A stretch of DNA of 64,000 nucleotides from Kiritimatiellia bacterium (GTDB lineage: Bacteria; Verrucomicrobiota; Kiritimatiellia; RFP12; UBA1067): contig JAFYDR010000194.1 in assembly GCA_017544725.1 (NCBI GenBank), forward strand, positions 8,211 through 72,210. Reading direction: 5' to 3'. A model generated the notes under the pieces. The model saw only the letters and a list, made by a program, of their open reading frames with translations, was not told the origin of the DNA and did not search any database. Of this stretch, positions 3,371 to 57,955 are shown one piece after another. Each line of letters starts with the position of its first letter. Positions within the stretch are counted from its first letter, which is position 1. A program made the position numbers and the translations under genes.

Positions 3371-3509
3371 CATCGCATTTTCGGTTTCAAAATCCCGCTT
3401 GCTCCTCGTCCATGCAATGTGCTACACTTTTTTTCGTTCGGCGATGATAGCCGAACGTGGGATCTTTGTCATACCGGCGGGCATCCGGCCGCCGGACGGT
3501 CGCCACATC

Positions 3510-3533
3510 GGGAGGGGCAACGTCCCCGTTGCC
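3510..3533 (-). repeat. Copy of the 24-nt palindromic element GGCAACGGGGACGTTGCCCCTCCC, in reverse orientation.
   Basis: GGGAGGGGCAACGTCCCCGTTGCC was read here. The same element recurs at 7703, 16092, 46168, 46262 and 50041, with degenerate copies at 33347 and 57764. Confidence 0.7.
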
Positions 3534-3557
3534 TTTATGGGATCGACTATTGGGGCG

Positions 3558-3665
3558 TGGGCGAGTTAGCTCGCACTATAAAGACAAGTTGTTTTCTTGT
3601 AAGTTGTTTCTGTTGCTTTGTTTCAAACGATAGCTGAATTTGTGGCGAAAAACACAGATACGCCC
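3558..3665 (+). repeat. AT-rich conserved element, copy 1. A GC hairpin is followed by a T-rich tract (..GCGAGTTAGCTCGCACTATAAAGACAAGTTGTTTTCTTGTAAGTTGTTTCTGTTGCTTTGTTTCAAA..). Candidate sRNA or leader element.
   Basis: A second copy at 21946-22045 is about 85% identical. Both are on the + strand upstream of + strand genes (rpsO, hisC). The AT-rich composition is an island in a GC-rich genome. Confidence 0.55.
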
Positions 3666-3908
3666 AAGGCAAAGGTAAAACATGCCAAAAAATTGGGCTT
3701 GACGGATGCGGGGAGGGTTTGGTATTGTAGCCGCTCATTTCTGCGACGTGTCTAAGGAGACATTCCCCGTCGCGGGTTTTCTCGGCGAAAGAATCGCTGG
3801 GGCATGGGTCTGTTCGGAAGGTCCGGACGGAACTGCGGCGGGGACGTTCGGCTTTGCCGACCGTCGCAGGAGCGGACACAACAGCGGAAAAGGACCGCGA
3901 GACAGACT

Positions 3909-6322: not shown

Positions 6323-6337
6323 TGCGGTTCAACGACA

Positions 6338-6367
6338 GGGCGTATCGGACTTTCGTTCGGTACGCCC
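6338..6367 (+). terminator. Hairpin GGGCGTATCGGAC-TTTC-GTTCGGTACGCCC followed by a T-rich CCTTGTTCC. Candidate pnp terminator.
   Basis: Inverted repeat read from the sequence, 16 nt after the pnp stop. Confidence 0.4.
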
Positions 6368-6615
6368 TCCTTGTTCCTTCGTCGCTCTCGTGCGACGCGC
6401 AAACGTGAATGGGTTTAGCTTGAATGATTGCTCACAAGTCACAAATACCAATCATCTGCATTGATGGCAATTGTGACATTTGTGAACAATGATAAAATTA
6501 TAAGCAAGCTCGCCGTCCGCGTTCGCACGGGAATGTTCAGGGGGATAATTTGGAAACTACCGCATCTCGTCACTCGTCACTACTTCGCGCAGCGAAGTTA
6601 CAAGAAGGATTCGCA

Positions 6616-7596: not shown

Positions 7597-7702
7597 GGCT
7601 GGGGCTATGCCGCTTATGGCGGCAGTGACGGATGACGAGATACGGCGTGGCTTACGCCTTCAGGCGGTTAGGCATGACAAGCTGGTAAAGCGGGTTAAGC
7701 TA

Positions 7703-7726
7703 GGCAACGAGGACGTTGCCCCTCCC
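7703..7726 (+). repeat. 24-nt palindromic element GGCAACGAGGACGTTGCCCCTCCC. It is embedded in a longer ~50-nt module (AAGCTGGTRAAGCGKGTTAAGCTAGGCAACG..) that is shared with 46146-46191.
   Basis: Exact repeat, read directly. The stem GGCAACG/CGTTGCC has loop AGGA. Confidence 0.75.
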
Positions 7727-7800
7727 AAGGCGGCTGTCGCCAGCCGAGAGGTGGGGAAGGGACATAAAGGACGAAAACGACAAAAGGGACGCCCCGCCCG

Positions 7801-7845
7801 CGCAGCGCACGGGAATATTCATAGGAAATATTTTTCGTTTCGGGC
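7801..7845 (+). repeat. E-module copy (GCCCCGCCCGCGCAGCGCACGGGAATATTCATAGGAAATATTTTT), a variant of the GC-clamp/AAGTTATCCCCATGAA family.
   Basis: It matches copies at 24781(-), 33373(-), 45894(+), 49741(+), 49943(+) and 55215(-). Confidence 0.6.
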
Positions 7846-7983
7846 AGCGGGGACGTTACCCGCGACGGAACGGACTGGCGAGACTGGCAGGAGTAGCGAG
7901 ACCGGCGGCTAACCCCCCGTCCCGATTGTCCTCATTGTCTCCATCATATTCGCCTTTCAGTTGGACGTCAGCCTTGGCCGTCA

Positions 7984-8012
7984 CCACTCTTCCTTGCCAA
8001 GCGGTCGATTAC
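7984..8012 (+). promoter_or_regulatory. Putative sigma70-type promoter TTGCCA-N17-TATCTT upstream of rsmE.
   Basis: Hexamers and spacing read from the sequence. It resembles the TTGCSS-N17/18-TATACT pattern seen upstream of hisC, proB and the sigma-54 activator gene. Confidence 0.3.
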
Positions 8013-8028
8013 TTGGTATCTTGTGCGC

Positions 8029-9884: not shown

Positions 9885-10069
9885 GACGACGGGCGCGACG
9901 AGCGCGAGGCGGCTGATGCCGCCTGCGTGTAAAGCAAATTAAACCAGCTAAGCAAGTTAAGCTTGGTAGGAGTGTCGTGTATCACGTGTCGCTCGACAGC
10001 TTTCGATTGCGATCGACCCCGACGACAAGCGCGACCTTTTGCGCTGCGTGAGATTAACTCGCGCCCATC

Positions 10070-10140
10070 TTCTTTCCTACTGCCCCTCTCCTCCTACTTT
10101 CTATTGCCTACTGCCTCCTCCCTATTGCCTCCTTCCCCCA
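10070..10140 (+). repeat. Low-complexity CTACTGCC/CCTATTGCC tract. It is the reverse complement of the AGTAGG/GGCAATAGGGAG module.
   Basis: It shares the units TATTGCCTACTGCC with 40775-40800 and, in reverse complement, with 33221-33250 and 40545-40600. Confidence 0.6.
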
Positions 10141-10222
10141 TTCTCTGCGTGATAGGATTATCGTTGGTACAGCTTCTCTTGGCTTGTCGAAATCGGTACT
10201 ATCGTGTTATTCTATTCCCGAC

Positions 10223-12553: not shown

Positions 12554-12627
12554 GCCCGAACCTTTTGGATGTTTTCAGATAACAATCAGTAGCCATCGAA
12601 TGCATTCGAAAATGGGACACTTTCGTC

Positions 12628-12832
12628 GCTCATCTCTCGTCACTGCCGCCTCTGGCGGCTGGCGGCTTCGCCGCCATTTCATTCGTCATTCCGTCATTCT
12701 TATTTCTTCATTCTTCTCTGCCGCCTTCGGCGGCTCGCCTTTCAGCTTCCCCGCTTCTCAGCTGGCGGCTCCGCCGCCTGTCACTCGTCATTCGTCATTG
12801 CCGCCTTCGGCGGCTGGCGGATCCGCCGCCCG
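12628..12832 (+). repeat. Mosaic repeat block. It contains TCGTCAT direct repeats, UUCG/UCUG-loop GC hairpins (GCCGCCTTCGGCGGC, GCCGCCTCTGGCGGC) and CAGCTGGCGGC units.
   Basis: Modules are shared with 24322-24455, 40681-40840, 46193-46215, 46322-46375, 49838-49925, 50170-50222, 54919-54980 and 57816-57955. Confidence 0.7.
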
Positions 12833-12876
12833 TTTGGACATTGCAGCGACGTGGGGATTGTGGTAAGATACTCGGC

Positions 12877-16082: not shown

Positions 16083-16091
16083 GGGCGCCCT

Positions 16092-16115
16092 GGGAGGGGC
16101 AACGTCCTCATTGCC
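16092..16115 (-). repeat. Copy of the 24-nt palindromic element in reverse orientation (GGGAGGGGCAACGTCCTCATTGCC), sitting between convergent genes.
   Basis: Read directly. It differs by 1 mismatch from the consensus. Its position is consistent with a bidirectional terminator role. Confidence 0.65.
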
Positions 16116-16121
16116 CGCACC

Positions 16122-18116: not shown

Positions 18117-18450
18117 TTCGCTTCAAAGCCATTCAAGTTCCTCATCCGCAAGGCGGTCAAGGCAAGCCGCCCGACTCACTGACACCCACCACCTACGTCG
18201 CAGAGAAATCAAACAATGACATTGTATCACCTCCGAACAATTTTCTCAATGCGGATTTGGAGATGGGCGGTAAAGCCGCCAGCTGTTGCTTTTGCATTCT
18301 GTTCGCGGGCATATTATGTCCGTGCCCCTGCGACTTCAAACGCATATCCTTAAAAATTGCGAACCCCAGCGAACGATTTGACACGGTTCTCTGCCTTTTG
18401 CTAGAATGTAACCGTTTTTGTTTGCGAATGTCATTTGGAACAGTCATCTT

Positions 18451-21660: not shown

Positions 21661-21700
21661 GCCGCCAATGAGAAATGACGAATGACGAGTGAAGCGGGTA
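21661..21700 (+). repeat. TCGTCAT-module copy in reverse orientation (ATGACGAATGACGAGTGAAG).
   Basis: It is the reverse complement of the CTTCACTCGTCATTCGTCAT units seen at 12640, 46322 and 57816. Confidence 0.6.
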
Positions 21701-21945
21701 CGACGACACGTACCTGTGCAACCCCCTGAATTATCCCGCTAGGTCACATCTCCAAATCTGGGGTGTTGTACTAGCAGTCCGAGGGGCGCATCTGCGTAAT
21801 TCACCTATTCCGTACGCACGAGAGGATTTTGGAAACAACCAGAACAACTTGAAGACAACATTTGAAAGAAGTGCGCGGACCAACCGGTCCGCGCAGTCTC
21901 TCCTTTGCCTGTAACTTGCCGCTATGGAGAGCCGCCGTGTGCTAC

Positions 21946-22045
21946 GCGGGCGAGTTAGCCCGCACTCTAAAGACAAGTTGTTTTTGTAAGTTGTTTCTGT
22001 TGTTTTCATTTCAAAAGACGACGGTGAAATACGCAGATGTGCCCC
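21946..22045 (+). repeat. AT-rich conserved element, copy 2 (GCGGGCGAGTTAGCCCGCACTCTAAAGACAAGTTGTTTTTGTAAGTTGTTTCTGTTGTTTTCATTTCAAAAGACG..).
   Basis: About 85% identical to 3558-3665. It begins with a perfect hairpin GCGGGC-GAGTTA-GCCCGC. It lies about 80 nt upstream of the hisC promoter. Confidence 0.55.
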
Positions 22046-24321: not shown

Positions 24322-24455
24322 CTTCGCTTCGCGAAGCAATGACGAATGACGAGTGACGAATGACAGGCGGCGGAGCCGCCAGCTGAGAAGCGGGAAAGCG
24401 AGCCGCCATAGGCGGTAATGAAAAATGAAGAGAGAAGAATGAAAAATGAAGGGCG
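24322..24455 (+). repeat. Mosaic repeat block. It contains the GCTTCGCGAAGC palindrome, TGACGAATGACGAG units, GGCGGAGCCGCC and GCCGCCATAGGCGG hairpins, and an AATGAAG array.
   Basis: Shares modules with 12628-12832 and others. It sits in a 510-bp gap between convergent genes. Confidence 0.7.
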
Positions 24456-24472
24456 GTGTGTCGCATGTCATC

Positions 24473-24488
24473 GATAGCTATCGATTGC
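24473..24488. repeat. Perfect 16-bp palindrome ATCGATAGCTATCGAT, within a TCGATTGCGATCGA-like module.
   Basis: Self-complementary, read from the sequence. Related CGATTGCGATCGA motifs are at 9990-10010 and 54880-54906. Confidence 0.6.
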
Positions 24489-24565
24489 GATCGAATGCAA
24501 TCGGACGGGGGGGATTTAATTTTGTGGAACTTGAAATCGTGGCGAGTGGAAAAGCCCTGAAAGGG

Positions 24566-24604
24566 CGTTAACTATACAGACGGGGGTGAGCGAAGCGTGA
24601 CCCC
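24566..24604 (+). repeat. Hairpin module CAGACGGGGGTGAGCGAAGCGTGACCCCCG (GGGGGT/ACCCCC stem).
   Basis: A near-identical copy is at 55001-55032. Confidence 0.6.
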
Positions 24605-24780
24605 CGACGGTGTCATAAACATCGACCAAGCCCTGAAGGGGCGGCAGAACAATCTACCGTAGATCATCGAGAGACGCGCCTTCTGTCGCCCTTTCAGGGC
24701 TAGTGTGCTTTTGCTTGATTCCGGGGGCTGTGCTACGCTTGTCCCCGTCTGTGTACTGTCGCCCCTTCGGGGCTTGACGA

Positions 24781-24820
24781 AAGTTATCTCCATGAATATT
24801 TCCGTGAGCAGCGCGGGCGG
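24781..24820 (-). repeat. E-module copy in reverse orientation (AAGTTATCTCCATGAATATTTCCGTGAGCAGCGCGGGCGG). It is preceded by the GCCCCTTCGGGGC UUCG hairpin.
   Basis: It matches the 55215-55258 copy, including the flanking GCCCCTTTGGGGC. Confidence 0.65.
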
Positions 24821-24831
24821 ATAACTTGTCG

Positions 24832-30977: not shown

Positions 30978-30993
30978 CGCGCGTCACGCGGCG

Positions 30994-31332
30994 TTAGGCC
31001 GCGCCACCCTCTTTTTTCTGAGCGGCGGCGGCTTTCTTCGCCTTCATGCGGCGTGCGCGCTTCGCGTTCTTGGCCTCGTTCGTGGTGGTCGTCTTTCCCT
31101 TGCGGGCGAGACGCACCAGGCTCGCGGCCTGTTCCGTCATCTGCGCACCGTGGCTCACCCAGTGATCCACGCGCTCCAGATCAACCTTGAAGTTGTTTTC
31201 GACTTCTTTGGGCGAATACCAGCCCAAAATCTCCAAAAACTTGCCATCGCGAGGCGAGCGGGCATCCGCCGCCACGATGCGCCAAGCGGCCGAATTCGTA
31301 CGACCTGTTCTGCGTAGTCTGATTTTGACCAT
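30994..31332 (-). CDS. rpsP: 30S ribosomal protein S16 (with a basic Ala/Lys-rich C-terminal tail).
   Basis: The N-terminus MVKIRLRRTGRTNSAAWRIVAADARSPRDGKFLEILGWY is canonical S16. ATG 31332 was chosen. The ORF-track extension to 31386 is upstream padding. Confidence 0.9.
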   Translation of the reverse strand: MVKIRLRRTGRTNSAAWRIVAADARSPRDGKFLEILGWYSPKEVENNFKVDLERVDHWVSHGAQMTEQAASLVRLARKGKTTTTNEAKNAKRARRMKAKKAAAAQKKEGGAA

Positions 31333-31463
31333 GTTTTTCTCCAAATGAAAGAGCGTACTATACCAAATTCCAAGGCAGAAAGGCAAGACGAAAATTTTCA
31401 GGATTTTTCAAATTTTTGTGCGTTGAGAAATGCTTGTTCCGATAGGTGGTTTTTGGTATAGTG

Positions 31464-32699: not shown

Positions 32700-33194
32700 A
32701 TGAGCACACCATTGCACGTCGTCTTGGTCCATCCGGAAATCCCGCACAATACCGGCGCAATCGGTCGCCTATGCGTCGGGCTCGATTGCCAGTTGCACTT
32801 GATTCGTCCGCTTGGTTTCCACCTCTCCGACCGCTATATTCAGCGGGCCGGACTAGATTACTGGGAGCATTTGCACCTTACGGTACACGAGTCGTGGGAA
32901 GCCTTTCTACAAACGGTCGCGCCGTCCCGTCTCGCCTTCCTGAGCACGAAAGGAACGCGTTCGCTTTACGATTGCCGTTTTCAGCCGGGCGATTGTCTGG
33001 TCTTTGGAAGTGAGGGGAGTGGATTGCCCAAGGAACTGTATGACCAGTATCGCGATCAGCTTTTCCGAATTCCGATGCCCGGACTGTACGCGCGCAGTAT
33101 CAACCTCGCCAACTCCGTCGCAATCGCGCTCTACGAAGCCTATCGTCAAGTAGGGGGTGGCAGGGGCGGCGAAGCTGCCAGCAATGAAAAATGA
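32700..33194 (+). CDS. trmL: tRNA (cytidine/uridine-2'-O)-methyltransferase, SpoU/TrmL family.
   Basis: Small SPOUT methyltransferase with HPEIPHNTGAIGR, VFGSEGSGL and NLANSVAIALYE. Confidence 0.8.
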   Translation: MSTPLHVVLVHPEIPHNTGAIGRLCVGLDCQLHLIRPLGFHLSDRYIQRAGLDYWEHLHLTVHESWEAFLQTVAPSRLAFLSTKGTRSLYDCRFQPGDCLVFGSEGSGLPKELYDQYRDQLFRIPMPGLYARSINLANSVAIALYEAYRQVGGGRGGEAASNEK

Positions 33195-33256
33195 AGAGAG
33201 AAAAATGAAGAATGATAGAGAAGGCAGTAGGCAATAGGGAGTAGGCAGTAGCGGCG
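33184..33256 (+). repeat. AATGAAG array plus AGTAGGCAATAGGGAG module (low-complexity repeat).
   Basis: It matches 24420-24450 and, in reverse complement, 40775-40835 and 10070-10140. It overlaps the last codons of trmL. Confidence 0.6.
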
Positions 33257-33346
33257 GCAGGTGCTTCGCATCAGATGGGAAGCGGGGATGACGGAGACGG
33301 GTGTTTAGCCGCCAGTCTCGCTAGTCTTGCCAGTCTCGCCCGTCCG

Positions 33347-33413
33347 TTCCGTCGTAGGCAATGTCCCCGTTGCCCGAAACCCAAGTTATCCCCATGAATA
33401 TTCCCGCACCCGG
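33347..33413 (-). repeat. Composite of a degenerate 24-nt hairpin element (GGCAATGTCCCCGTTGCC) plus an E-module (AAGTTATCCCCATGAATATTCCCGCACCCGGTGGGGCGGGG), both in reverse orientation.
   Basis: The same two-module juxtaposition is seen at 7703-7845 and 45894-46191, but with different spacing. Confidence 0.6.
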
Positions 33414-33544
33414 TGGGGCGGGGTACTAACCACCCAACTACCCAACCACCTAACCACCTAACTGTCGCACCGTTTCGCGAAGCGAAAGGAATTTTCAGAA
33501 TCGGCTTGCCACTCGTTCCGGAATACCTTAAACTACCCCTATCT

Positions 33545-34087
33545 ATGAATGACACGGAACAGATGACGATGGAACGGCTCGCGTCGGAATTCATGAAGAT
33601 CCGTAGCGAGATGATTGCGTCTGCGGAAGGCGCAATGAGCATGGCGCTGAAGAAGATCGTTACTCCTTCAGAGGTGGTTCAGGAGGCTTACCTGGCGGCC
33701 GCCAAACGGTTGGCCGATTTTTCGGTGACTTCTTTCCCTCAAAAGTTCAAGGAACTCCTGGAAGAGACGATCTTGGCAGACGAGAACAAGCACTGTCCGG
33801 GCGCGGCGGAAGCGGAGCGTCATGTGGACATTGACATGACGGGGTTCAACGAGAAGAGCCACATCCGCATGGCTCAAGCCGATCCCTTCGCCTCGCTCCA
33901 CAAGCTCATGGAAGAGTTGCCTCCGGACGAACGGGAGATTCTCAACCTGCGGCATTTCCAGAGCCTGAATATCGCGGCGGCAGCGAAGGAGATGCACATT
34001 TCCACTGCACGAGCGAAGGCGCTCTACGCGCGGGCACTCATGGATCTGAAGGCCAAGATGGGTCCTGGCTCCAGACTTGGGCTATGA
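33545..34087 (+). CDS. RNA polymerase sigma factor, sigma-70 family (ECF-like, regions 2 and 4).
   Basis: 180 aa. The C-terminal HTH LNIAAAAKEMHISTARAKALYARAL is typical of sigma region 4. The stop overlaps the start of the downstream helicase gene (ATGA). Confidence 0.6.
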   Translation: MNDTEQMTMERLASEFMKIRSEMIASAEGAMSMALKKIVTPSEVVQEAYLAAAKRLADFSVTSFPQKFKELLEETILADENKHCPGAAEAERHVDIDMTGFNEKSHIRMAQADPFASLHKLMEELPPDEREILNLRHFQSLNIAAAAKEMHISTARAKALYARALMDLKAKMGPGSRLGL

Positions 34088-37143: not shown

Positions 37144-37376
37144 TTGGTAGTTTTTCAGCGAAGTAGTAGCGGCAGGGCCGGACATGGTATGTCCGCGAAC
37201 AGAATGCGGTGCTTCTTTCGCCCTTCAGCTGGCGGCTTTCAGCCGCCAGCTCGTTCTTTTTCGCCGGTCTCGCCAGTCCTTGCGCGGCGGATGTGCAGAT
37301 GCTGCCCGTCCTTTGTCATTGGTACTTCTGTCGCCCCAGTGTTCTGTTCGTGGGTTGCGAGCTAGAAGCTAAACCC

Positions 37377-40433: not shown

Positions 40434-40508
40434 CGTTTCCCCCTTTCAAATAGAAACTGGGATTAGCGTACCAAGATTCCCCCATTCCGTCAATTCTGGA
40501 AAAAGGGG

Positions 40509-40615
40509 GGAGGCTGAGAAGCGGGGAGACTGAGAAGCTAGGGAAGAAGGCAGTAGGCAGTAGGGAATAGGGAGTAGGGAATTAGGGAGTAGAGAGTAGG
40601 GGGTGACGAGAGAAG
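40509..40615 (-). repeat. GCTGAGAAGC units plus an AGTAGGGAATAGGGAG tandem array, in reverse orientation.
   Basis: It is the reverse complement of modules found in the + orientation at 40740-40800. It lies upstream of the 37377-40433 gene. Confidence 0.65.
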
Positions 40616-40680
40616 GATGGATCATGGGAGCATTACCGTTGCCTAAACTTAACTCGCTTGCCCGGTCTAACACGCTTTAC

Positions 40681-40840
40681 CAGCTGGCGGCTCTGCCGCC
40701 CTTCATTCGTCACTGCCGCCTTAGCGGCTTGCCTCTCAGCTTCTCTGCTTCTCAGCTGGCGGCGTAGTCGCCCCTACTCCCTATTGCCTACTGCCTTCTT
40801 TTCATTCTTCATTTTTCTCTCTTCATTTTTCTCATCACTG
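40681..40840 (+). repeat. Mosaic repeat block (CAGCTGGCGGC, TTCATTCGTCACTGCCGCC, CTCAGCTTCTC, CCTATTGCCTACTGCC, CTTCATTTTTCTC array).
   Basis: Modules are shared with 12628-12832, 57816-57955 and 33184-33256 (in reverse complement). Confidence 0.7.
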
Positions 40841-40842
40841 CT

Positions 40843-42216: not shown

Positions 42217-42446
42217 CTATGGTTAAGCGTGTTAGGTTTTGCGTGATGGGAAGGTGGCTGACGCCGTCAAGGCTGAGAAGCAGACAACGGGGATAGAAAA
42301 GTGTGGAAACAACCAACAAAGAACTGCACATCTGGGTTCTGCGACGGACATTCTTGTCCGCATTCTTTGCGGCTCCGTGTAAGGGAATGGCGGTGCTGTA
42401 CGGATGTGCGGGCTGGCAGGTTGTTCATGTCGCCTCGTTCAGCGGC

Positions 42447-43463: not shown

Positions 43464-43539
43464 AGTCTGTTTCTCCTCTGGAGCTGCTAGCTTTTAGCTG
43501 TCAGCTCCTAGATTCCTCTTTTCCTAACCTCTCAGCTCA

Positions 43540-43600
43540 ATCAGCTTACCCAACCTAACACGCTTACCCGGCTTAACACGCTTAACTGGCTTAACACGCT
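43540..43600. repeat. Tandem CTTAACACGC/CCTAACACGCTTACC units.
   Basis: GGCTTAACACGCTTAACTGGCTTAACACGCTC was read here. Related units are at 40650-40680 and 59700-59765. Confidence 0.55.
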
Positions 43601-45685
43601 CTACCGCACCTTGCCTTCCTTCTTCCGCTTCTCGATGATCTTCTCGGTGAGTTCGAACGGAACACCCTCATAGTGGGCGAAGATCATCGTGTAGGTGCCG
43701 CGTCCCTGCGTGAGCGTACGGATCGTGTTGGAATAACCGAACATCTCGCTCAGCGGAACCATGCCGTGGACGAGCTTCGAGCCCCCCTTGTCCTCCATGC
43801 CCTCAACGCGACCGCGACGCTGGCAGAGAGAACCGGTTGCGGCACCCATCTGGTCCGGCGGAACGGAGACTTCCACGTTCATCATCGGCTCCAGCAACTG
43901 CGGATTGCCGCGCAGGAAGAGCTGCTTGAAACACTGCCGCGCACATTCGATGAAGGCGAACTCGTTGGAGTCCACTTCGTGATACGATCCGAAGTAAACC
44001 GTCACCTTCACATCGACCACCGGGTATCCAGCGTAAGGACCAGACTCCATCGCGCGGATGACGCCCTTCTCGACTGCGGGAATGTACTCGTTGGGAATTA
44101 CACCGCCCTTGACCTCGTTGACAAAGGAGAATCCCATGCCCGGATCCTGCGGTTCCAAACGCAAACAGACGTGCGCATACTGTCCGCGACCACCCGTCTG
44201 CTTGACATGCTTGTACTCGCCCTCCGACTTCATGCGGATAGTCTCGCGGTAGGCGACTTCCGGCGCACCGACCGTACAGGCAACGTTAAACTCGCGCTTC
44301 AGACGATCTACAATAATCTGTAGGTGCAACTCGCCCATTCCGGAAATGACAGTCTCGCTGGTCTCTTGATCGAACTTGACGACGAACGTCGGGTCTTCTT
44401 GCGCCAATGCGTAGAGAGCGTTGCCCAACTTCTCATTCTCGCCGCGAGATTCCGGTTTGATCGAGACGGAGATGACGGGCGCAGGGAAGTCGATCGACTC
44501 CAGCGTAATCGGATGGGCACGGTCGCAAAGCGTATCACCCGTGCGGGTGCGCGTCAGACCGACGACCGCCACAATGTCGCCCGCGTATGCCTCTTCCAGC
44601 GCTTCCTGCCGGTTCGCATGCATCCGGAAGAGACGCCCGATACGGGCGGACTGCTTCATGGTGCTGTTGTACACTTCCTCGCCGAGCTTCAACACGCCTG
44701 AATAGACGCGGACATAGGTGAGTTTGCCCATGTGCTTGTCGGAAACGATCTTGAACGCGAGACCGCAGAACGGCTCATTGTCATCCGGCTTGCGAATCTT
44801 ATCGGGATCGTCCGCCGAAACCACGTCACCGATGTCCAACGGCGACGGCAGGTAGTCGCAAACCGCGTCGAGCATCGGCTGGATGCCCTTGTCCTTGAAT
44901 GCCGAACCACAGTAGGCAGGCACGAGCTTACGTGCGATTGTTCCCTTGCGGATCGCGCCCTTGATTTCCTCAATCGTCAGTTCCTCGCCGCCGAGATACT
45001 TCTCCAACAAGGCGTCGTCCTGCTCGGCAGCCTTCTCCACCAACTCGTGGCGCAACTGCTTGCACTTTTCACGAAGGTGTTCGGGAATTTCCTCCATGAT
45101 CTCGGTCTTGCCGAGTGTCTTCATGTCGAACTTGATCGCCTTCATCGTCAGCAGATCGACGATTCCTTCGAAATTCTCCTCCGCACCGATCGGGCAAACC
45201 ATCGCTACCGGGTTGCCGCCCAACACGTTCTTGATGCCTTCCAGCACGGCAAAGAAGTCTGCGCCGATACGGTCCATCTTGTTGACCATCGCAATCTTCG
45301 GCACGTTGTACTTCTCGGACTGGCGCCAAACCTGTTCGGACTGCGGCTGTACGCCACCCACTGCGCAGAACAACGCCACAGCACCGTCCAACACACGCAA
45401 GGAACGCTCCACCTCCGCCGTGAAGTCCACGTGTCCCGGGGTGTCGATCAAGCTGATTCGGTACGATTTCCAATCGACGGTTGTCGCGGCGGACATGATG
45501 GTGATGCCACGTTCCTGTTCCTGCACCATGGAGTCCATCGTGGCCGCGCCGTCATGGACCTCGCCAATTTTGTGGATTTTTCCGCTATAAAAGAGAATGC
45601 GCTCACTCGTGGTCGTCTTTCCCGCGTCAATGTGCGCCATAATACCGATATTACGGACTTTTTCCAGAGCAACTGTTCTGGGCAT
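43601..45685 (-). CDS. fusA: Elongation factor G
   Basis: G-domain motifs [17 protein letters not shown] and NKMD, all five EF-G domains, and 694 aa. Confidence 0.95.
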
Positions 45686-45938: not shown

Positions 45939-46145
45939 AAAGCAATTGCATCCCCCTGATATATCTCGCACAAAGTTCACGAAGTTCCGCTTTAAAAATT
46001 TCTTTGCAGACCTTATGTGGGACAGACAAGCAGGTTTTGCAACAGGCTCTTTCGACAAGCCCCCAAGGGGCGAAAGTTAATGCTTATTTAGGGCTTCCAT
46101 AACTTTGCAATCGCAAATCCTGTCGGTTTCGCCGTCAGCCAGTTA

Positions 46146-46191
46146 GGCATGATAAGCTGGTGAAGCGTGTTAAGCTAGGCAACGGGGACGT
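46146..46191 (+). repeat. About 50-nt module ending in the 24-nt hairpin element GGCAACGGGGACGTTGCCCCTCCC.
   Basis: GCTGGTGAAGCGTGTTAAGCTAGGCAACGG.. matches 7681-7726. Confidence 0.7.
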
Positions 46192-46261
46192 TGCCCCTCC
46201 CGTTTTCATTCGTCATTGCCGCCACAAGGCTGTGCATCATTCTTTATTCCGAACAAAGTGA

Positions 46262-46285
46262 GGCAACGAGGACGTTGCCCCTCCC
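46262..46285 (+). repeat. 24-nt hairpin element GGCAACGAGGACGTTGCCCCTCCC (a second copy in the same gap).
   Basis: Exact match to the 7703 and 50041 copies. Confidence 0.75.
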
Positions 46286-46321: not shown

Positions 46322-46375
46322 GCGTGAAATTTCTCTCGTCATTCGTCATTGCTTCGCAAAGCGAAGTTATAGGCC
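46322..46375 (+). repeat. TCTCGTCATTCGTCATTG module plus the GCTTCGCAAAGCGAAG hairpin plus the GTTATAGGCC (D) module.
   Basis: Shares units with 50170-50222, 54919-54945 and 57940-57955. Confidence 0.6.
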
Positions 46376-46437
46376 AAGAACTCTGCTTTTCTTCTTTCCC
46401 GTTTTTTGTTATAATTTTCCTTTCTGGGACGGATGGT

Positions 46438-49704: not shown

Positions 49705-49707
49705 CGG

Positions 49708-49732
49708 TATAACTTCGCGCGGCGAAGTTATA
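49708..49732. terminator. Perfect palindrome TATAACTTCGC-GCG-GCGAAGTTATA four nt after the peptidase stop. It is part of the GAAGTTATAGGCAAG (D) module.
   Basis: Self-complementary, read from the sequence. A D-module with the E-module follows at 49724-49786 and again at 49926-49987. Confidence 0.45.
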
Positions 49733-49740
49733 GGCAAGCG

Positions 49741-49786
49741 CCTCGCCCGCGCCGCGCGCGGGAACGTTCATGGGGAATAACTTTCA
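49741..49786 (+). repeat. E-module copy (CCTCGCCCGCGCCGCGCGCGGGAACGTTCATGGGGAATAACTTTC).
   Basis: There is a tandem second copy at 49943-49987 with 200-bp periodicity. The intervening 49838-49925 block is a TCGTCAT/CTCAGC/GC-hairpin module. Confidence 0.7.
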
Positions 49787-50040
49787 GTTTCGACGACGAG
49801 GACATCGGCGTTACGCAGCGGACGCGACGGAGCGCGTCTCTCCCATCCGTCACTGCAACCTCTGGTTGCTTACTTCTCAGCCTCTCAGCTTCCCCGCTTT
49901 TCAGCAGGGCGGCTTCGCCGCCCTGCGAAGTTATAGGCAAGCGCCCCGCCCGCGCCGCGCGCGGGAACGTTCATAGGAATAACTTTCGACAAGCCCCGAA
50001 GGACTAAACGGTCACGACAAGCGCACCCCTCCCCATTTCA

Positions 50041-50064
50041 GGCAACGAGGACGTTGCCCCTCCC
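50041..50064 (+). repeat. 24-nt hairpin element GGCAACGAGGACGTTGCCCCTCCC.
   Basis: Exact copy. Confidence 0.75.
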
Positions 50065-50330
50065 GTTCGTGGGTAAGTGCCGCTAGGTGGTTAAGTGTCC
50101 CTGCGGGACTAAGGGGTGATGCCCCACTTAGAGCCGAAGGCTCACTTAGGGCGAAGCCCACTTAATTCCATCTCTCGTCACTCGTCATTGCCGCCATCGG
50201 CGGCATCTTCATTCATCATTTTCCTTGCGTGGGGCGTTTATGCCACACTATAATCTTTCCGTTCTTGAGGGCGTGTGCCATTGAGATGATGTGTCGCAAA
50301 AGGGGTTGCAATTGTTACCAAGGTGAGTCT

Positions 50331-52637
50331 ATGAAGATGATGAAACGAATCGCGTTGTCGCTGGTTGCAATGCTATCGATATGGATTGTCGGTTGCATCG
50401 GACCGGGCGGCAACGTTGCGCTAGACACGGCGAAGCCGTTGCGCGTGGCGGTGTTCGTGGGTGACGGCGCGCGTAACATTGGCGTATTCCGTTGGGTCGA
50501 GATCGCGACGATGGCGGAGAACGTCGTCGCTACGCCTGTAGATGGCGCGGCAGTGAGAGCGGGTGCGCTGGATACGATGGACGTCCTTATCATGCCGGGC
50601 GGGAGTGGACACGATGAAGGAGTGAACCTCGGAGCAGATGGGCGCGAACGCGTCAAGTCATTCGTGCGTGGAGGCGGCGGCTATATCGGCACATGCGCTG
50701 GATTCTACCTTGTCACGGAACCGATTCCCACGAATCCGAAGCGCAAGGACTACCTCGGACTTATCCCGTTCAAGGACACGATCGATGGCGGAAACGGCAG
50801 GGCAGAGGTCAATTTCGAGTTCAACGAAAAGGCGGAGAAGCTGGCCGGGATCAAGAAGGGCAAACACAAGATTCAATACAGCCACGGTCCTGTTGCGATC
50901 CGCTCGCAGAAAGCGGTGGAGGGGACTCGAGCAGAGGTGCTTGCGACGTATGCATGTGATTATAACCCGAGTCGTTTTCTGCGACCCTCGAAGGCGGGGC
51001 ATGTCGCTGTTGTCGCCGCTGAGTGCGGGAAGGGGAGAGTGTTCGCGTTCACCTGCCATCCCGAAAGTGATGTCGATGACCACACGTGCATCGAGGGCGC
51101 GTTCCGCTATGTGACGGGCAGGGAGATCCGCTGGCGTTATCCGCAGCGGAAGCGTGGGCAACTCGCCATCGGGTTCTTGTGCGACGACTCGTTCGGGGTT
51201 GAGACCGCACGCCTCGTTCAGCGTCTTCTCCGCGAACACGAGTTTGACATCGTGCCGATGAACACGGGACTCATAAGCGAAGGTGCGCTCCAGCATCTCG
51301 ATGCGGTTCTCGCTCCTGCAAACGAAGGCAAGGCGGATTCCAAGATTGGACTGTACGGTGAGAACGAGGAGCGGACAAAGGCGTTCCTCGCTCGTGGTGG
51401 ACGTGTTGTCGCGTGGGGTAATGCAGCAGAACGAGTGAAGGTTCGCGGATTGGATGGTGCAGTTTGCGTGGCGGATGCGGATGCTGCGCTTGCGAATCTT
51501 CGGGCATTCGCCGCAGAGTCGGTTCTGTTGGACAAGCAGAAGCTTGTTCCTCCCCAAAAAGTTGAAAGCCCTGTGAAAATTGCGGTTTTCGCGGGCGATG
51601 GTTGCGCGATGGGAAACATTCCGCAACTGCTTGAGTTCTCGCCTGAATACATGGTTGACATAGTTGGCGCGGATGGGGTCGCGTCGGGAGTACTCAAGGG
51701 TTACGACGCGATCTACATGCCCGGCGGCTATTCTGCGATTGCCTATCAGACGCTTGGTGAGGGCGGTCGCAAGGCACTCGTCGATTACATCCGTGGAGGC
51801 GGCAAGTACTACGGCGTATGCGGCGGTTCCTTCCTCGTCTCGCAAACGAAGATGACGCCTGGCAAGGCAGGGCAGGTTCCCGGCGACACTCCGTTCCTGA
51901 GCCTTGTTCCCTATAAAAATGACAATCCGCAACATTACCGTGGTAAAGCCCCCGTGCGCATACGTCTGACGGACGAAGGAAAGGCGATCTTTCCCGAATC
52001 CCACACGAATCGCGTGGTGTGGTACGCCGGCGGTCCCGTGTTCGTTGGTGCGAACAAAGTGGATGATTCCGACATCAAGGTGTTCGCGGAATACAACAGC
52101 CATGTTATCAGTACGCTCGACCCCAAATCGACGCCGGACATGATCGGCAAGGCGGCGATTGTAGGCGGACGCGTCGGCAAGGGCAAGCTGTTCGCTCAAT
52201 GCCCGCATCCGGAACGCCACGAGTGTACGTTCGACATGGTGCGTGACGCCTTTAAATGGCTTGCGGGTGCGCGTCCCACGGGAACGCTTCCGACGCGCAT
52301 ACGCGGGGCCAAGTCCGTCTTTGTCAAGATGGGATACAGGCAGGGCATAGATGTCGCCGTTCCGTTCGTCCTCAAGACGCTTCTTCACGATCGACGTTTC
52401 GACTGTCGTATTAGCAATGTCATGGACAACAACGAGCTGGCGCATTCGGATGCCGTCATCCTGTGCCTGTTCGATAAGAACAGTTGGACTCCGCAACTGA
52501 AGGAATTCGCTGCGAATGGAGGTCAGGTCATCTGTGTGGCCGAAACCGAGGACAAGCGGAAGATTGCCGAGAAGTTCGACGGTGCGACCGTTGTCGATTC
52601 CTACAACCATGTAATCGAGGAGATGCTGAAGAAATGA
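50331..52637 (+). CDS. Lipoprotein with two class-I glutamine-amidotransferase-like (GATase1/ThuA/BPL_N-like) domains. Paralog 1.
   Basis: Lipobox LSIWIVGC. Each half has a GxCAG nucleophile-elbow motif (YIGTCAGFYL, YYGVCGGSFL) and an HPE motif (FTCHPESD, QCPHPERHE), the Cys-His-Glu signature of class I GATases. Each domain is followed by a roughly 150-aa Rossmann-like segment. Confidence 0.75.
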   Translation: MKMMKRIALSLVAMLSIWIVGCIGPGGNVALDTAKPLRVAVFVGDGARNIGVFRWVEIATMAENVVATPVDGAAVRAGALDTMDVLIMPGGSGHDEGVNLGADGRERVKSFVRGGGGYIGTCAGFYLVTEPIPTNPKRKDYLGLIPFKDTIDGGNGRAEVNFEFNEKAEKLAGIKKGKHKIQYSHGPVAIRSQKAVEGTRAEVLATYACDYNPSRFLRPSKAGHVAVVAAECGKGRVFAFTCHPESDVDDHTCIEGAFRYVTGREIRWRYPQRKRGQLAIGFLCDDSFGVETARLVQRLLREHEFDIVPMNTGLISEGALQHLDAVLAPANEGKADSKIGLYGENEERTKAFLARGGRVVAWGNAAERVKVRGLDGAVCVADADAALANLRAFAAESVLLDKQKLVPPQKVESPVKIAVFAGDGCAMGNIPQLLEFSPEYMVDIVGADGVASGVLKGYDAIYMPGGYSAIAYQTLGEGGRKALVDYIRGGGKYYGVCGGSFLVSQTKMTPGKAGQVPGDTPFLSLVPYKNDNPQHYRGKAPVRIRLTDEGKAIFPESHTNRVVWYAGGPVFVGANKVDDSDIKVFAEYNSHVISTLDPKSTPDMIGKAAIVGGRVGKGKLFAQCPHPERHECTFDMVRDAFKWLAGARPTGTLPTRIRGAKSVFVKMGYRQGIDVAVPFVLKTLLHDRRFDCRISNVMDNNELAHSDAVILCLFDKNSWTPQLKEFAANGGQVICVAETEDKRKIAEKFDGATVVDSYNHVIEEMLKK

Positions 52638-54859
52638 AAAAAGCTGTCATTGTTGTCGCGATGTTTCCGCTGTTTATTGGAACCGTCGCAACTGGCGTGG
52701 AGAAATCTGTATCGGCGGAAGCAGAGAAGCCGCTACGGATAGCGGTTTACGTGGATAAGGGTGCCCGCAACATGGGCGTGTTCCGCTGGATTGAACTGAC
52801 GACATTGGCTGGAGGCGCGAAGTCCTTGCCGGTGGATGGTGCGGCGATACGGGCAGGTGCGCTGGATACGGCGGACATCCTTGTCATGCCGGGCGGATCG
52901 TCTGTCGATGAGGCAAAGTCGCTCGGGGCAGAGGGACGTGAGAAAATCCGCGCGTTTGTGAAGGGGGGCGGTGGCTACATCGGTACATGCGCGGGGTGTT
53001 GCCTCCTCATGCAACCGTCAAAGGGACATCCGGATATGATCCACATGATCCCGTTCCGGTTCGGTGTGGGCGGAGGGAGGGCGGATCTCTCAATCGCGTT
53101 TAATCGTCGTGCGACGGAACTCGCGGGAATCCGGAAGGGTACGGCGACGATTCGCTATTCGCACGGACCGGTACCGATTCCGTCGCTTCCGGTAAAAGAT
53201 GCGGAAGTGGAGGTCGTGGCGACTTACAACAGCGACATCAACACGACTAGCGGTAAGGATCGTACGTCTATGGCTGGACAAGCTGCCGCCATCGCGGGGA
53301 CTTACGGGAAGGGACGGCTCTTTGTTTTCGCGGTACATCCCGAAAGCGACAAGGCTGATCACCACATTCTGAAAGGCGCGTTCCGTTACGTGTCGGGACG
53401 TTCGCTCGACTGGGATTTCCCGCAACGGAAACGTGGACAACTCACCGTTGGTGTCATGTGCGATGATTCGTTCGGCGTGAGAACCGCACGGCTTCTTCAA
53501 CGGCTGATCACGGATGGTGAATTTGACGTTGTGCCGCTGAACGCGGCGGCGATCGAAGAAGGTGCTCTGCGGCATATCGATGCGATTCTCGCTCCGGGCG
53601 ATGCAGAGGCGGTAGATTTGAGAAAGGGGTTCTACGGCGAAAATGTCCAACGCACGAAGGAGTTTCTTGTGCGTGGCGGACGGGTTTTCGCATGGGGATA
53701 TGCGGCGGATGCGGCGGAAAAGCGTGAAATGGGATTTTCGCGTGTGGCGGACGGCGAGGCTGCGATTGCGGCGTTGCGTACGTTCGTTGCGGAACCGCCG
53801 TCCAAACCGATTCCAGTACCGCAAAAAGTTGCGAAGCCGATTCGCGTGGGCGTGTATCTGGACAAAGGCGGCAGCAACCTCTCGATCGCGCGAGCACTGA
53901 AGCTCTCGCCCGAATACGAAGTGACGTTCTTGAACGCGGCAGACTATGCAAACGGTGGACTGGACGGTCTCGATGTAATCCTCCAGCCTGGCGGTAGCTG
54001 TAAGGCACAGTATGAAATGATGGGACCGAATGGTGTGGAAGCACTTAGGAGATTCGTGCTGGACGGTGGCAAGTACTACGGCGTTTGCGCGGGGGCATTC
54101 ATGGCACTCCAGATTTCGCGTAACGACTGGCCGCGATTGGGGCTTATCCCGTTCAAGGGGGACGATCCCAGCCACTACCGTGGTGGTGCGCCGATCAAGA
54201 TCGCGCTTACGGATGAAGGGAAGAAGGTGTTTGAAGGATCTCCGAAAGAACGTATCGTTCTCTATTTCGGCGGACCTGCGGCCATTCCGGGAACCCCCGT
54301 GGAGGATACGGATGTGAAAGTCCTTGCTCACTATGCCGGACGCATCATCAACGCATGCCAGCCTGATCCTGTCGAAGAGATGGTGGGCAAGGCCGCGTTC
54401 TTGGGTGGCAGGGTCGGGAAGGGAAAGGTGTTTGTTTCCTGTCCGCATCCAGAGACGGAAGAGGCGACTTTCGATCTCGTGAGAAGCGGGATCAAGTTCC
54501 TGACAGGCGTTGCGCCTACACCAGTGTACCTCGACAGAGTGCGCGGTGCGGTGACGATCCGGTATCGGGTGTCGGACAAAAAGTCGGCACAGTTCCAGAT
54601 TGACACACTCATCTGGGACAGGCGCATCGATCTCTGTCCGGGCAAGGACTGGATTGATTTGTCGCACATTGACGCGATTGTGCAGACGGGTGAGGTGACC
54701 GATGCGGACGCGCAGATGCTGAACCGTTTTGTCGGAAAGGGCGGCAGGGTTGTCGCGTTGTGTGATACGGAGGAGAAACGCCAAGCGGCCGCAAAGCTAA
54801 AGGGGACCATCGTGGTGGAAAAATACGCCGACATCATCGACGCGATTGTTCGCAAATAA
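52634..54859 (+). CDS. Lipoprotein with two class-I glutamine-amidotransferase-like domains. Paralog 2; the gene is a tandem duplicate.
   Basis: About 55-65% identical to paralog 1 along its whole length (KPLRIAVYVDKGARNMGVFRWIEL.., GGGYIGTCAGCCL, AVHPESDK, YYGVCAGAFM, SCPHPETEE). Its ATG overlaps the upstream TGA (ATGA). Confidence 0.75.
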   Translation: MKKAVIVVAMFPLFIGTVATGVEKSVSAEAEKPLRIAVYVDKGARNMGVFRWIELTTLAGGAKSLPVDGAAIRAGALDTADILVMPGGSSVDEAKSLGAEGREKIRAFVKGGGGYIGTCAGCCLLMQPSKGHPDMIHMIPFRFGVGGGRADLSIAFNRRATELAGIRKGTATIRYSHGPVPIPSLPVKDAEVEVVATYNSDINTTSGKDRTSMAGQAAAIAGTYGKGRLFVFAVHPESDKADHHILKGAFRYVSGRSLDWDFPQRKRGQLTVGVMCDDSFGVRTARLLQRLITDGEFDVVPLNAAAIEEGALRHIDAILAPGDAEAVDLRKGFYGENVQRTKEFLVRGGRVFAWGYAADAAEKREMGFSRVADGEAAIAALRTFVAEPPSKPIPVPQKVAKPIRVGVYLDKGGSNLSIARALKLSPEYEVTFLNAADYANGGLDGLDVILQPGGSCKAQYEMMGPNGVEALRRFVLDGGKYYGVCAGAFMALQISRNDWPRLGLIPFKGDDPSHYRGGAPIKIALTDEGKKVFEGSPKERIVLYFGGPAAIPGTPVEDTDVKVLAHYAGRIINACQPDPVEEMVGKAAFLGGRVGKGKVFVSCPHPETEEATFDLVRSGIKFLTGVAPTPVYLDRVRGAVTIRYRVSDKKSAQFQIDTLIWDRRIDLCPGKDWIDLSHIDAIVQTGEVTDADAQMLNRFVGKGGRVVALCDTEEKRQAAAKLKGTIVVEKYADIIDAIVRK

Positions 54860-54918: not shown

Positions 54919-55080
54919 CGCTTGCCTATAACTTCGGGCCGCCAGAGGCGGCAGTGACGAGTAACGAATGACGAATAGCCGCATAGCGGCGATACAGAAA
55001 CAGACGGGGGTGAACGAAGTGTAACCCCCGGTAACGCCACCCCATGCGAAATAGCCGCGTAGCGGCGACACAATGTTCGA
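54919..55080 (+). repeat. Mosaic block: D-module in reverse orientation (CTTGCCTATAACTTCG), a GCCGCCAGAGGCGGC hairpin, a GTGACGAGTAACGAATGACGAAT unit, and a CAGACGGGGGTGAACGAAGTGTAACCCCCG hairpin.
   Basis: Modules match 24322-24604, 49724 and 57940. Confidence 0.65.
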
Positions 55081-55214
55081 TGACAAGAGCGTTGTGGCAC
55101 CGATGTCTTCGCAGTCAAAAATTTGTGGCGCCGCTATGCGGCTTGATGTGTTGTGATCCATAATGCGGGGGTTGCACCCCTGCCTATACCTATGTCGCCC
55201 CTTTGGGGCTTCTA

Positions 55215-55258
55215 GAAAGTTATCCCCATGAACACTCCCGTGCGCGGCGCGGGCGGGG
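55215..55258 (-). repeat. E-module copy in reverse orientation (GAAAGTTATCCCCATGAACACTCCCGTGCGCGGCGCGGGCGGGG), preceded by the GCCCCTTTGGGGC hairpin.
   Basis: Matches 24740-24820. Confidence 0.65.
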
Positions 55259-55558
55259 CACTTGCCTCTTTTTCCCTCACGCAAAGTTCACGAAGTCCGC
55301 TAGGTGGTTTGAGATTGCTTGAGATGTGTGTGACACACTCTCTTCTCCTTTACGGACTCTGCGAACTTTGTGTGAGCCATATTCAGGGGCAATTCCCTCA
55401 AACGATTGTCGCGGTAAAGGCAAAGGAGAGACGATGCGCGGACCGGATAGTCCGCACACCTCTTTCAGTTGTTGTAGTCAGGCTGTTCGTGTTGTTCCCA
55501 AAATCTCCCGTGCGCATGAGATGGGTGAATTACGCAGATGCGCCGCTGGAACACGCGT

Positions 55559-57715: not shown

Positions 57716-57763
57716 CGGTGGCAACTGTTGGTAAGCTGGTTGGGCGGGAAGCTGGTTAAGTTG

Positions 57764-57786
57764 GGCAACGGGGATGTTGTCCAATC
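57764..57786 (+). repeat. Degenerate 24-nt hairpin element (GGCAACGGGGATGTTGTCCAATCC).
   Basis: It is preceded by the AAGCTGGTTAAGTTGG module, as at 7681 and 46146. Confidence 0.5.
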
Positions 57787-57815
57787 CGTTATGCGACGCA
57801 CGACATTTGACAAGC

Positions 57816-57955
57816 ACTCGTCATTCGTCATTATGCGAGACATCTCTCTTTTCAGCCTCTCGGCTTTCCCGCTTCTCAGCTGGCGGCTTCGCCGCCTGTC
57901 ATTCGTCACTCTTCACTCGTCACTGCCGCCTCTGGCGGCCCGAAGTTATAGGCAA
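57816..57955 (+). repeat. Mosaic block: CTCGTCATTCGTCAT, CTCTCAGCC/CGCTTCTCAGC, CTGGCGGCTTCGCCGCC, GCCGCCTCTGGCGGC, and the CGAAGTTATAGGCAAG (D) module.
   Basis: Same module set as 12628-12832 and 40681-40760. Confidence 0.7.

Follow-up and report, generated by a model that had tools for sequence, protein, structure and literature searches.

Repeat modules shared among the intergenic regions of a Kiritimatiellae genome form a REP/BIME-like population

What are the short modules that recur, in changing combinations, between the genes of a 64-kb stretch of a Kiritimatiellae metagenome-assembled genome (contig JAFYDR010000194.1; hereafter the window, that is, the entire stretch analyzed), and how did they spread? 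Kiritimatiellae, most of which have not been cultured, abound in the gut and the rumen, and to our knowledge, there is no prior description of their non-coding DNA. A sequence-only reading of the window had preferred a mobile system, akin to repetitive extragenic palindromes (REPs) and bacterial interspersed mosaic elements (BIMEs), over conserved regulatory sites. The present analysis backs this preference with a tagged extragenic palindrome, hairpins that flank genes for the REP-associated tyrosine transposase (RAYT), and a lineage-specific repertoire of modules. The repeats are a REP/BIME-like population that is new for the Kiritimatiellae, not a new kind of system.

Results

Modules shared among intergenic regions

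The modules were surveyed directly in the window and in two strain contigs, L067 and L069, which are independent European Nucleotide Archive contigs from other samples of the same species (98.6-98.8% identical to the window); the comparison with other species covered 415 kb, including 87 kb of intergenic sequence. All 11 gaps that the sequence-only reading had listed as assembled from common modules do have modules in common. A common 11-mer (on either strand) is present in 45 of the 55 pairs of these gaps, with 638 shared 11-mers overall, compared with a mean of 4.9 pairs (maximum 11) and 7 shared 11-mers (maximum 19) in 200 dinucleotide shuffles; each gap has 11-mers in common with 6-10 of the other ten. 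The comparison relies on the shuffles alone, a control with coding segments having been discarded as unreliable since its segments could overlap. The identities were reproduced by alignment: self-BLAST of the window, a check named beforehand, produced 94 non-self matches and placed the repeats almost solely between genes, all pairs but one being intergenic after merging. A pattern search recovered every named module, namely, the 24-nt hairpin, the E module, the D module AAGTTATAGGCAAG, TCGTCAT arrays, GCCGCC/GGCGGC hairpins, CAGCTGGCGGC, CTTCTCAGC units, AATGAAG arrays and AGTAGGS arrays, at densities 8-90 times higher in intergenic than in intragenic sequence. Among the tandem arrays detected by Tandem Repeats Finder, which are located in the gaps, periods of 7 and 9 predominate.

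Distant gaps contain stretches of 55-94 nt that are 84-95% identical, in both orientations. For example, 24336-24399 matches 57863-57926 (94% over 64 nt), 54921-54976 matches 57901-57956 (95% over 56 nt, complementary), and 12745-12799 is complementary to 24345-24399 at 95%. The approximately 100 nt at 57855-57956 are a true mosaic, in which the left 64 nt match 24336-24399 and the right 56 nt match 54921-54976. Mis-assembly is excluded because identical blocks occur at identical places in L067 and L069, two contigs from other samples. The gaps as originally listed are real, although several of their ends overrun real or over-extended open reading frames (ORFs); the corrected gaps are 7597-8022, 9885-10183, 12554-12840, 33195-~33412+, 45686-~46400, 49705-50228 and 57716-~57966. 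Additional module-bearing gaps are 3371-3803, 6323-6615, 16083-16121, 18117-18417, 37144-37376, 42217-42446, 43464-43600 and 59657-~59800; the region 30978-31445 is not a gap and contains the gene for ribosomal protein S16.

A tagged extragenic hairpin

The 24-nt hairpin consists of a stem of 7-8 bp, a 4-nt purine loop and a fixed unpaired tag, GGGAGG/CCTCCC. The window holds 5 exact and about 4 decayed copies. The hairpin is 25-38 times enriched in intergenic sequence, and a scan of 0.49 Mb for a perfect hairpin followed by CTCCC yielded 141 intergenic and 12 coding matches. Among species-representative genomes, more than 66 contigs contain the exact pattern GGCAACGRGGACGTTGCCCCTCCC, and nearly all of these are Kiritimatiellae bins from the guts of goat, sheep, yak, deer and cattle; the pattern produced no matches among viral contigs. 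Exact matches also occur on four short contigs (L039, L058, L060 and L066) binned as Bacteroidales, Muribaculaceae, Eubacteriales and Saccharibacteria, which probably are mis-binned Kiritimatiellae contigs.

There are at least five stem classes (GGGCAACG, GGGCAGCG, GGTCGCG, GGACGCG and GGCGCGTG), with loops AGGA, GGGA and ACGGGG and a constant tag; upstream of rpsO, a relative with 78% KpsF identity has additional, different stems that follow this design. In related loci, we detected 17 inverted doublets, mostly with a spacing of 36-39 nt, versus 4 in the opposite arrangement. REPs bear terminal tags, lie downstream of genes, are found in the Planctomycetes-Verrucomicrobia-Chlamydiae (PVC) superphylum including Opitutus, and form mosaic intergenic regions in Neisseria (PMC3733652). 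Judged by its sequence and distribution, the 24-nt hairpin, a tagged and strongly extragenic palindrome in several species, is a REP-type element.

Some related loci are rich in hairpins. In the Kiritimatiellae bin RGIG3447, contig L001 (3480-4002) contains five near-identical 120-nt tandem units, each with two tagged hairpins (GGACGCGAC... and GGCAACG...), and the same spacing is found in L013, L016 and L044. A CRISPR reading of these 120-nt arrays was rejected because the would-be spacers are identical, that is, the whole unit repeats. Two intergenic regions of 1-1.5 kb in L053 (1840-2860 and 5620-7090), also from RGIG3447, consist of hairpins and word arrays nearly throughout. The intergenic share of the fetched related loci, which were chosen for carrying a hairpin, is about 21%, high for bacteria.

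A credible connection with RAYT

RAYT genes were sought with tblastn, using approximate sequences of the Escherichia coli RAYT and of the IS200 TnpA as probes; the resulting lead to contig L020 was then confirmed with NCBIfam, and the criterion for a RAYT was the 80-bit cut-off of model NF047646 (REP_Tyr_transpos). An in-frame ORF of 189 aa in contig L073 scores 84 bits against this model and contains an HUH motif, PDHLHLF, and a tyrosine motif, WEYVRNNPV. On both sides, this gene is flanked by inverted doublets of the form CGGAGGGACGTGC-TTCC-GCACGTCCC, about 30 nt, GGGACGTGC-GGAA-GCACGTCCCTCCG. The same arrangement is present in L072, and both contigs are of the Verrucomicrobia type.

Hairpins with the tag found in the window adjoin RAYT remnants. 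In L020 (1-312), the hairpin of the window itself is repeated five times in tandem, with a 27-nt period, directly beside 180 nt that match the C-terminal third of the NCBIfam REP-associated tyrosine transposase (E = 1.9e-10); homologues of this fragment are short ORFs, several of them called RayT by the Joint Genome Institute (JGI). In L074 (4001-4474), five GGGAGG-tagged hairpins with a 48-nt period and one inverted copy precede a similar remnant. One of these two contigs belongs to a rumen genome bin; the other is an unclassified metagenome scaffold. Gene callers read arrays of this type as the N-terminus of a protein of 80-157 aa, and the arrays are unstable because the number of hairpin units differs (one versus five) within a single 90%-identity protein cluster. 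On this evidence, a RAYT connection of the hairpin family is credible.

Contig L006 (5026-6072) of RGIG3447, the most hairpin-rich species, has a 348-aa ORF with an HUH motif, and GCCAAACGGG word arrays precede this ORF. Its similarity to REP_Tyr_transpos (E = 6.5e-7) and to Y1_Tnp (E = 0.004) is weak and does not reach the cut-offs; the ORF may encode a divergent tyrosine transposase.

Lineage specificity and strain comparison

The hairpin and the GCTGAGAAG unit were the only modules detected in other species; the heptamers, the D and E modules and the GCCGCC hairpins are nearly absent from the 415 kb compared, and the words of those species are different ones, for example, GGTTGAG arrays. 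PNPase and KpsF are separated by a repeat-filled spacer of 293 nt in the window (6323-6615). In L068 (~10001) and L070 (1928), with 76-78% protein identity, there is no spacer, and the stop codon of PNPase and the start codon of KpsF overlap (TAATG).

The sole clustered differences between strains lie in a D+E copy (6495-6545 in the window versus 1885-1935 in L067), with about 10 changes in 45 nt counted by reading, and the remainder of the gap is identical. These changes may represent gene conversion from another copy.

Organization of the gaps

The principal features of the gaps, in order along the window, are as follows (the promoter is a consensus match only):

3510-3534 (-): copy of the hairpin module; the + strand reads GGGAGGGGCAACGTCCCCGTTGCC
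6495-6549 (+): D+E element with ends AAATTAT...ATAATTT, upstream of the KpsF ATG at 6616
6566-6581, then 6583-6597 (+): heptamer array, then CTTCGC/GCGAAG hairpin, upstream of the same ATG
7609-7637 (+): GC palindrome GCCGCTTATGGCGGC, 13 nt past the KpsF stop codon, then heptamers AGTGACG GATGACG (CGTC tag on the opposite strand)
7647-7726 (+): 80-nt block with 9-nt words AAGCTGGTAAAGCGGGTTAAGC, 88% identical to 46122-46201
7703-7726: hairpin module GGCAACG-AGGA-CGTTGCC + CCTCCC, at the end of the 80-nt block
7790-7834 (+): E module core CGCCCCGCCCGCGCAGCGCACGGGAATATTCATAGGAAATATTTT
7828-7921 (+): 94-nt block, an inverted copy (84%) of 33296-33389
7843-7860 and 7873-7907: decayed hairpin and 9-nt array GACTGGCGA, inside the 94-nt block
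7994-8022 (+): sigma-70-like promoter TTGCCA-17-TATCTT, between the repeats and the RsmE start codon
9885-9899 and 10021-10035 (+): decayed hairpins of the GGTCGCGAC class
9907-9924 (+): GC hairpin, followed by purine-rich words and then by pyrimidine-rich CCTACTG arrays (10075-10140)
12622-12830 (-): alternating GCCGCC-N3-GGCGGC and GGCGGC-N3-GCCGCC hairpins, CGTCATT arrays and CTTCTCAGC units
16086-16115 (-): copy of the hairpin module, occupying a 39-nt gap between convergent genes
21674-21694 (+): heptamer array AATGACG
21783-22045 (+): 263-nt element with 23-nt inverted ends, 21783-21805 / 22023-22045
24322-24451 (+): hairpin, (AATGACG)x4, hairpin, GCTGAGAAG, hairpin, (AATGAAR)x5, beginning at the stop codon of the upstream gene
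24549-24831 (+): one of two copies of a ~300-nt composite, with a long hairpin, TGTC-tagged GCCCY hairpins and an inverted E core (24783-24804)
33183-33251 (+): AATGAAR and AGTAGGS arrays
33296-33389: inverted copy of 7828-7921, with a decayed hairpin (33357-33374) and an inverted E core (33385-33406)
40503-40601: GCTGAGAAG and TAGGGAG arrays, 8.7 copies, in the left part of the gap
40649-40831: the same words inverted, with hairpins, in the right part of the gap 40434-40842
43515-43601 (-): 9-nt arrays GCGTGTTAA / GGGTAAGC, starting at the EF-G stop codon
45893-45937 (+): E core
46122-46201 and 46262-46285 (+): 80-nt block with a hairpin copy, and a second hairpin copy
46332-46377 (+): heptamers, hairpin and D module
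49713-49785 and 49908-49986 (+): hairpin + D + E in each, with 93% identity over 59 nt; CTCAGC units also lie within 49713-50205
50041-50064 and 50171-50205 (+): copy of the hairpin module; heptamers with a GC hairpin
54921-54976 (+): inverted D module, hairpin and heptamers
54973-55270 (+): the other copy of the ~300-nt composite
57749-57787 (+): 9-nt words and a decayed hairpin
59685-59766 (-): 9-nt arrays of the GCGGGTTAA / GGGTAAAC type, 6.6 copies

Besides the tagged hairpin, the gaps contain GC hairpins, with stems of 5-7 bp made of G-C pairs only and loops of 3 nt; CGTCAYT sits 5' of most of the GCCGCC-N3-GGCGGC hairpins and TGTC 5' of the GCCCY hairpins. Between the hairpins lie word arrays, CGTCATT, AGTAGGS, AATGAAR, GCTGAGAAG and GCGTGTTAA, and REP tags recur within the heptamer words: CGTCATT includes CGTC, and AGTAGGS includes GTAG. 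The D+E element (65 nt) has 7-nt inverted ends, AAGTTAT/ATAACTT, with a matching variant (AAATTAT/ATAATTT) in one copy. Its E-core 16-mer TTCATGGGGATAACTT has 120 matches in metagenomes, which we regard as chance matches because none has the E context. The ends of the 263-nt element are 91% alike, and its inner AAGACAAGTTGTTTT block recurs at 3555-3615, upstream of rpsO (related stretch, 3555-3665); in addition, 21777-21902 is an inverted copy of 55428-55552. The 263-nt element, 3555-3665 and 55428-55552 are each positioned a short way upstream of promoter-like sites. Between the two copies of the ~300-nt composite, identity is 75%, and three GCCCTGAAAGGGC-type sites all become GCCGCATAGCGGC-type in the second copy, with the long-range pairing kept. 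The two halves of the gap 40434-40842 pair with each other (RNA fold z = -4.1).

The genes around these gaps mark the window as ordinary housekeeping chromosome, with a G+C content of about 56%; they encode PNPase, KpsF, RsmE, LeuA, gyrase or topoisomerase subunits, ribosomal proteins S15, S16 and L19, TrmD, Dxr, UvrD, PheS, EF-G and several glycoside-hydrolase-type proteins, and there are no tRNAs in the window. The sole coding self-match of the window (50562/52856) connects two adjacent paralogous genes, 50229-52637 and 52484-54859, with BPL_N / glutamine amidotransferase-like domains and internal repeats at 50534/52828 and 50667/51792/52961. An 8-nt array, AACCACCC (4.4 copies, 33428-33462), falls inside the predicted 5' end of a sigma-factor ORF (33413-34087), the real start codon of which probably lies further downstream. 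The gene calls of one assembly include a 141-aa ORF consisting of repeats alone. A metagenome scan confirmed no relatives of the 457-aa protein encoded beside the gap 40434-40842.

A purine-then-pyrimidine layout of the word arrays

The arrangement of the modules had been described as shuffled and bidirectional. Copies do occur in both orientations; their arrangement is not free, and the word arrays obey a rule. With gene boundaries taken from our own gene calls, the sense strand of arrays near stop codons in the window is purine-rich in 22 cases versus 4, and that of arrays near start codons is pyrimidine-rich in 19 versus 3; the respective counts in other loci are 24:8 and 35:10. Geometrically, whichever of the four kinds of gene boundary is considered, top-strand purines prevail in the left half of a gap and pyrimidines in the right half (purine:pyrimidine counts of gap halves, 27:7 on the left and 6:17 on the right; Fisher p = 1e-4). 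A word-independent test gave p = 0.005 in the window.

In the purine orientation, all five word families hold a stop codon: TGA in AATGACG, AATGAAG and GCTGAGAAG, TAG in AGTAGGS, and TAA in GTGTTAAGC; therefore, heptamer arrays provide stops in all three frames (examples of stop-bearing arrays are 24338-24451, 33183-33251, 40539-40601 and 43515-43601). In the pyrimidine orientation, a stop codon is present in the TTAA-containing 9-mer alone. The strand read outward from a gene is purine-rich, and the strand read inward is C/U-rich and G-poor. Polar arrays built from REP tag words might, as a doubtful proposal, act as two-sided insulators that would halt outgoing stray translation and incoming stray transcription, for example, through Rho loading; if true, this would be a new use of repeat elements.

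Discussion

Known systems compared

The original impression that the modules match no named repeat family has to be softened: the hairpins resemble the tagged REP super-families, and a sub-module matches an RNA motif, Acido-Lenti-1, at a sub-threshold level. REP super-families are tagged GTAG or CGTC, with TGTC and CCTC variants (Di Nocera 2013, PMC3733652). Our system shares with REPs, REPINs (inverted REP doublets) and their RAYTs (Nunvar 2010; Bertels and Rainey 2011, PMC3116915; PMC3733652) a tagged extragenic palindrome in many copies, with several stem classes per genome, as well as fixed-spacing inverted doublets and an element-flanked RAYT gene in related genomes. It differs in having GGGAGG as its tag instead of GTAG or CGTC, in the truncation of the RAYTs beside the hairpin type of the window and in the occurrence of tandem arrays with periods of 27, 48 and 120 nt. 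The CGTC-tagged REPs (PMC3733652), for which no dedicated transposase is known, likewise have a terminal CGTC (TGTC, CCTC) tag beside a small stem-loop. As in the BIMEs of E. coli and the dRS3/Correia mosaics of Neisseria (PMC3733652), the gaps here are filled with varied combinations and orientations of palindromes and short motifs, located after and between genes. There is, however, no sequence relation to these mosaics, the linkers here are 7- and 9-nt tandem word arrays, and a purine-then-pyrimidine layout like that of our arrays is not described for BIMEs.

The short tandemly repeated repetitive (STRR) sequences of cyanobacteria are intergenic heptamer direct repeats. Further intergenic heptamer arrays with no agreed function are TAACTGA in Beggiatoaceae (PMC4679880) and the heptanucleotide elements of Geobacter (PMC2700814). 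The arrays described here are similar to all of these in being tandem 7-nt words in 2-9 copies, intergenic and lineage-specific, but several word families occur together here and are interleaved with hairpins; furthermore, the TAACTGA repeats lie a few nucleotides upstream of start codons, whereas our arrays follow stop codons or precede promoters. Acido-Lenti-1 (RF01687; Weinberg 2010, PMC2864571) was described in Lentisphaerae, a phylum related to Kiritimatiellae, and shares with the ~300-nt composite two hairpins, a CUA..UAUGUCG linker and a second hairpin ending in CCUUCGG. The scores of the composite, 25.4 bits (24721-24774) and 19.2 bits (55165-55210), are below the gathering threshold of 37 bits, and the motif here is a sub-module of a larger repeated unit.

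Origin and spread of the repeats

We consider it fairly probable that the gaps hold lineage-specific extragenic repeats of the REP/BIME type. Under this scenario, a RAYT acting in trans would have spread the tagged hairpins as single-stranded DNA, a mode established for REP/RAYT and IS200/IS605 elements; the word arrays would have grown from the tag-bearing flank through slippage or unequal exchange, and the mosaics would result from recombination or gene conversion between shared modules. The host would retain insertions in the tolerated orientation only, yielding the purine-then-pyrimidine layout, and the resulting hairpin-rich blocks probably would separate a stop codon from the next promoter, as a buffer that protects RNA 3' ends or insulates transcription. 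The mobility of most modules, their activity in this species and a function for the host are what we infer from these patterns.

Several observations weigh against this scenario. No RAYT or other transposase is encoded within the window, the remnants in L020 and L074 lack the HUH motif, and among the best 120 relatives of the full-length RAYT, those that are named belong to Opitutae/Verrucomicrobiota and none is named Kiritimatiellae. There are no REPIN-type inverted doublets in the window; its hairpin copies are single and partly decayed, so the repeat system may be old rather than active, and no module has changed position between strains that are 98.7% identical. The heptamer and nonamer arrays are tied to a transposase only through the resemblance of their tags. 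Published CGTC families have stems of 8-9 bp starting with A-T pairs, loops of 4-5 nt and a CCA tail, none of which was found here, unlike the short G-C stems and 3-nt loops of our GC hairpins and their tandemly repeated tag word; because stems and loops misfit, the likeness is resemblance, not membership. Finally, the layout rule is based on about 15 window gaps and on our own gene calls and hence is a lead, and the word-independent test is weak elsewhere (p = 0.06).

Alternatively, the blocks could consist of fixed cis-acting signals, such as terminators, RNA 3'-end stabilizers or insulators, that arose in place or by local duplication, independently of any transposase. The positions of the repeats fit this possibility: GC hairpins start 0-24 nt past several stop codons, one hairpin copy takes up an entire convergent gap, candidate promoters lie between repeats and start codons, the layout rule is independent of gene orientation, and the blocks are unchanged across strains. 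We nevertheless deem such an origin unlikely given the copies, 94-95% identical and with mosaic breakpoints, that occur far apart in either orientation, the species-specific repertoire together with the absence of the PNPase-KpsF spacer in relatives, and the RAYT genes flanked by hairpins of the same design. A classical intrinsic terminator composed of a hairpin and a word array was rejected, as terminator-like sites, and promoter-like sites as well, are not more frequent than in shuffles, and a hairpin with a U-rich tract next to the stop codon would predict the reverse of the observed layout.

The hairpins might instead belong to small structured RNA families, either a CsrB-like protein sponge, given that the loops AGGA and GGGA contain GGA and the 120-nt units of L001 each include two such hairpins, or relatives of Acido-Lenti-1, given the sub-threshold matches, the concerted compensatory changes in long-range pairs of the composite and the strong fold of the gap 24322-24831 (z = -7.1). 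At Rfam gathering thresholds, no family was detected in the window, and tRNAs alone in 141 kb of related loci. The fold of the gap 7597-8022 is only marginally better than that of shuffles (z = -1.95), and an RNA reading of the E module was abandoned with one compensatory change among 7 predicted pairs. A CsrA sponge is rejected as the principal reading because the hairpins between co-directional genes have no orientation preference relative to transcription (30 sense versus 23 antisense). Overall, an RNA origin appears improbable. Miniature inverted-repeat transposable elements (MITEs), left by ordinary insertion sequences with terminal inverted repeats rather than by a tyrosine transposase, are suggested by the 7-nt inverted ends of the D+E element, with their matching variant, and by the 23-nt inverted ends of the 263-nt element. 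Yet, both ends are present in only 4 of the 9 D+E copies (the E core was counted 8-9 times in the window), most modules, including the hairpins and word arrays, have no inverted ends, and the window lacks an insertion-sequence transposase. In addition, reading of the D+E flanks revealed no target-site duplications, a result that also counts against the REP/BIME scenario. We regard a MITE origin as very improbable.

Implications

A catalogue of these modules would lead to fewer false protein predictions by gene callers and would supply markers for strain typing. Through the GGGAGG-tagged hairpins, the association between REPs and RAYTs gains a new tag, within the credibility of the RAYT connection noted above. 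The findings suggest a lineage in which the transposase has decayed but the repeats have lasted, which bears on the survival of such elements. If it proves genome-wide, the purine-then-pyrimidine layout would offer a testable clue to the role of intergenic repeats in their hosts.

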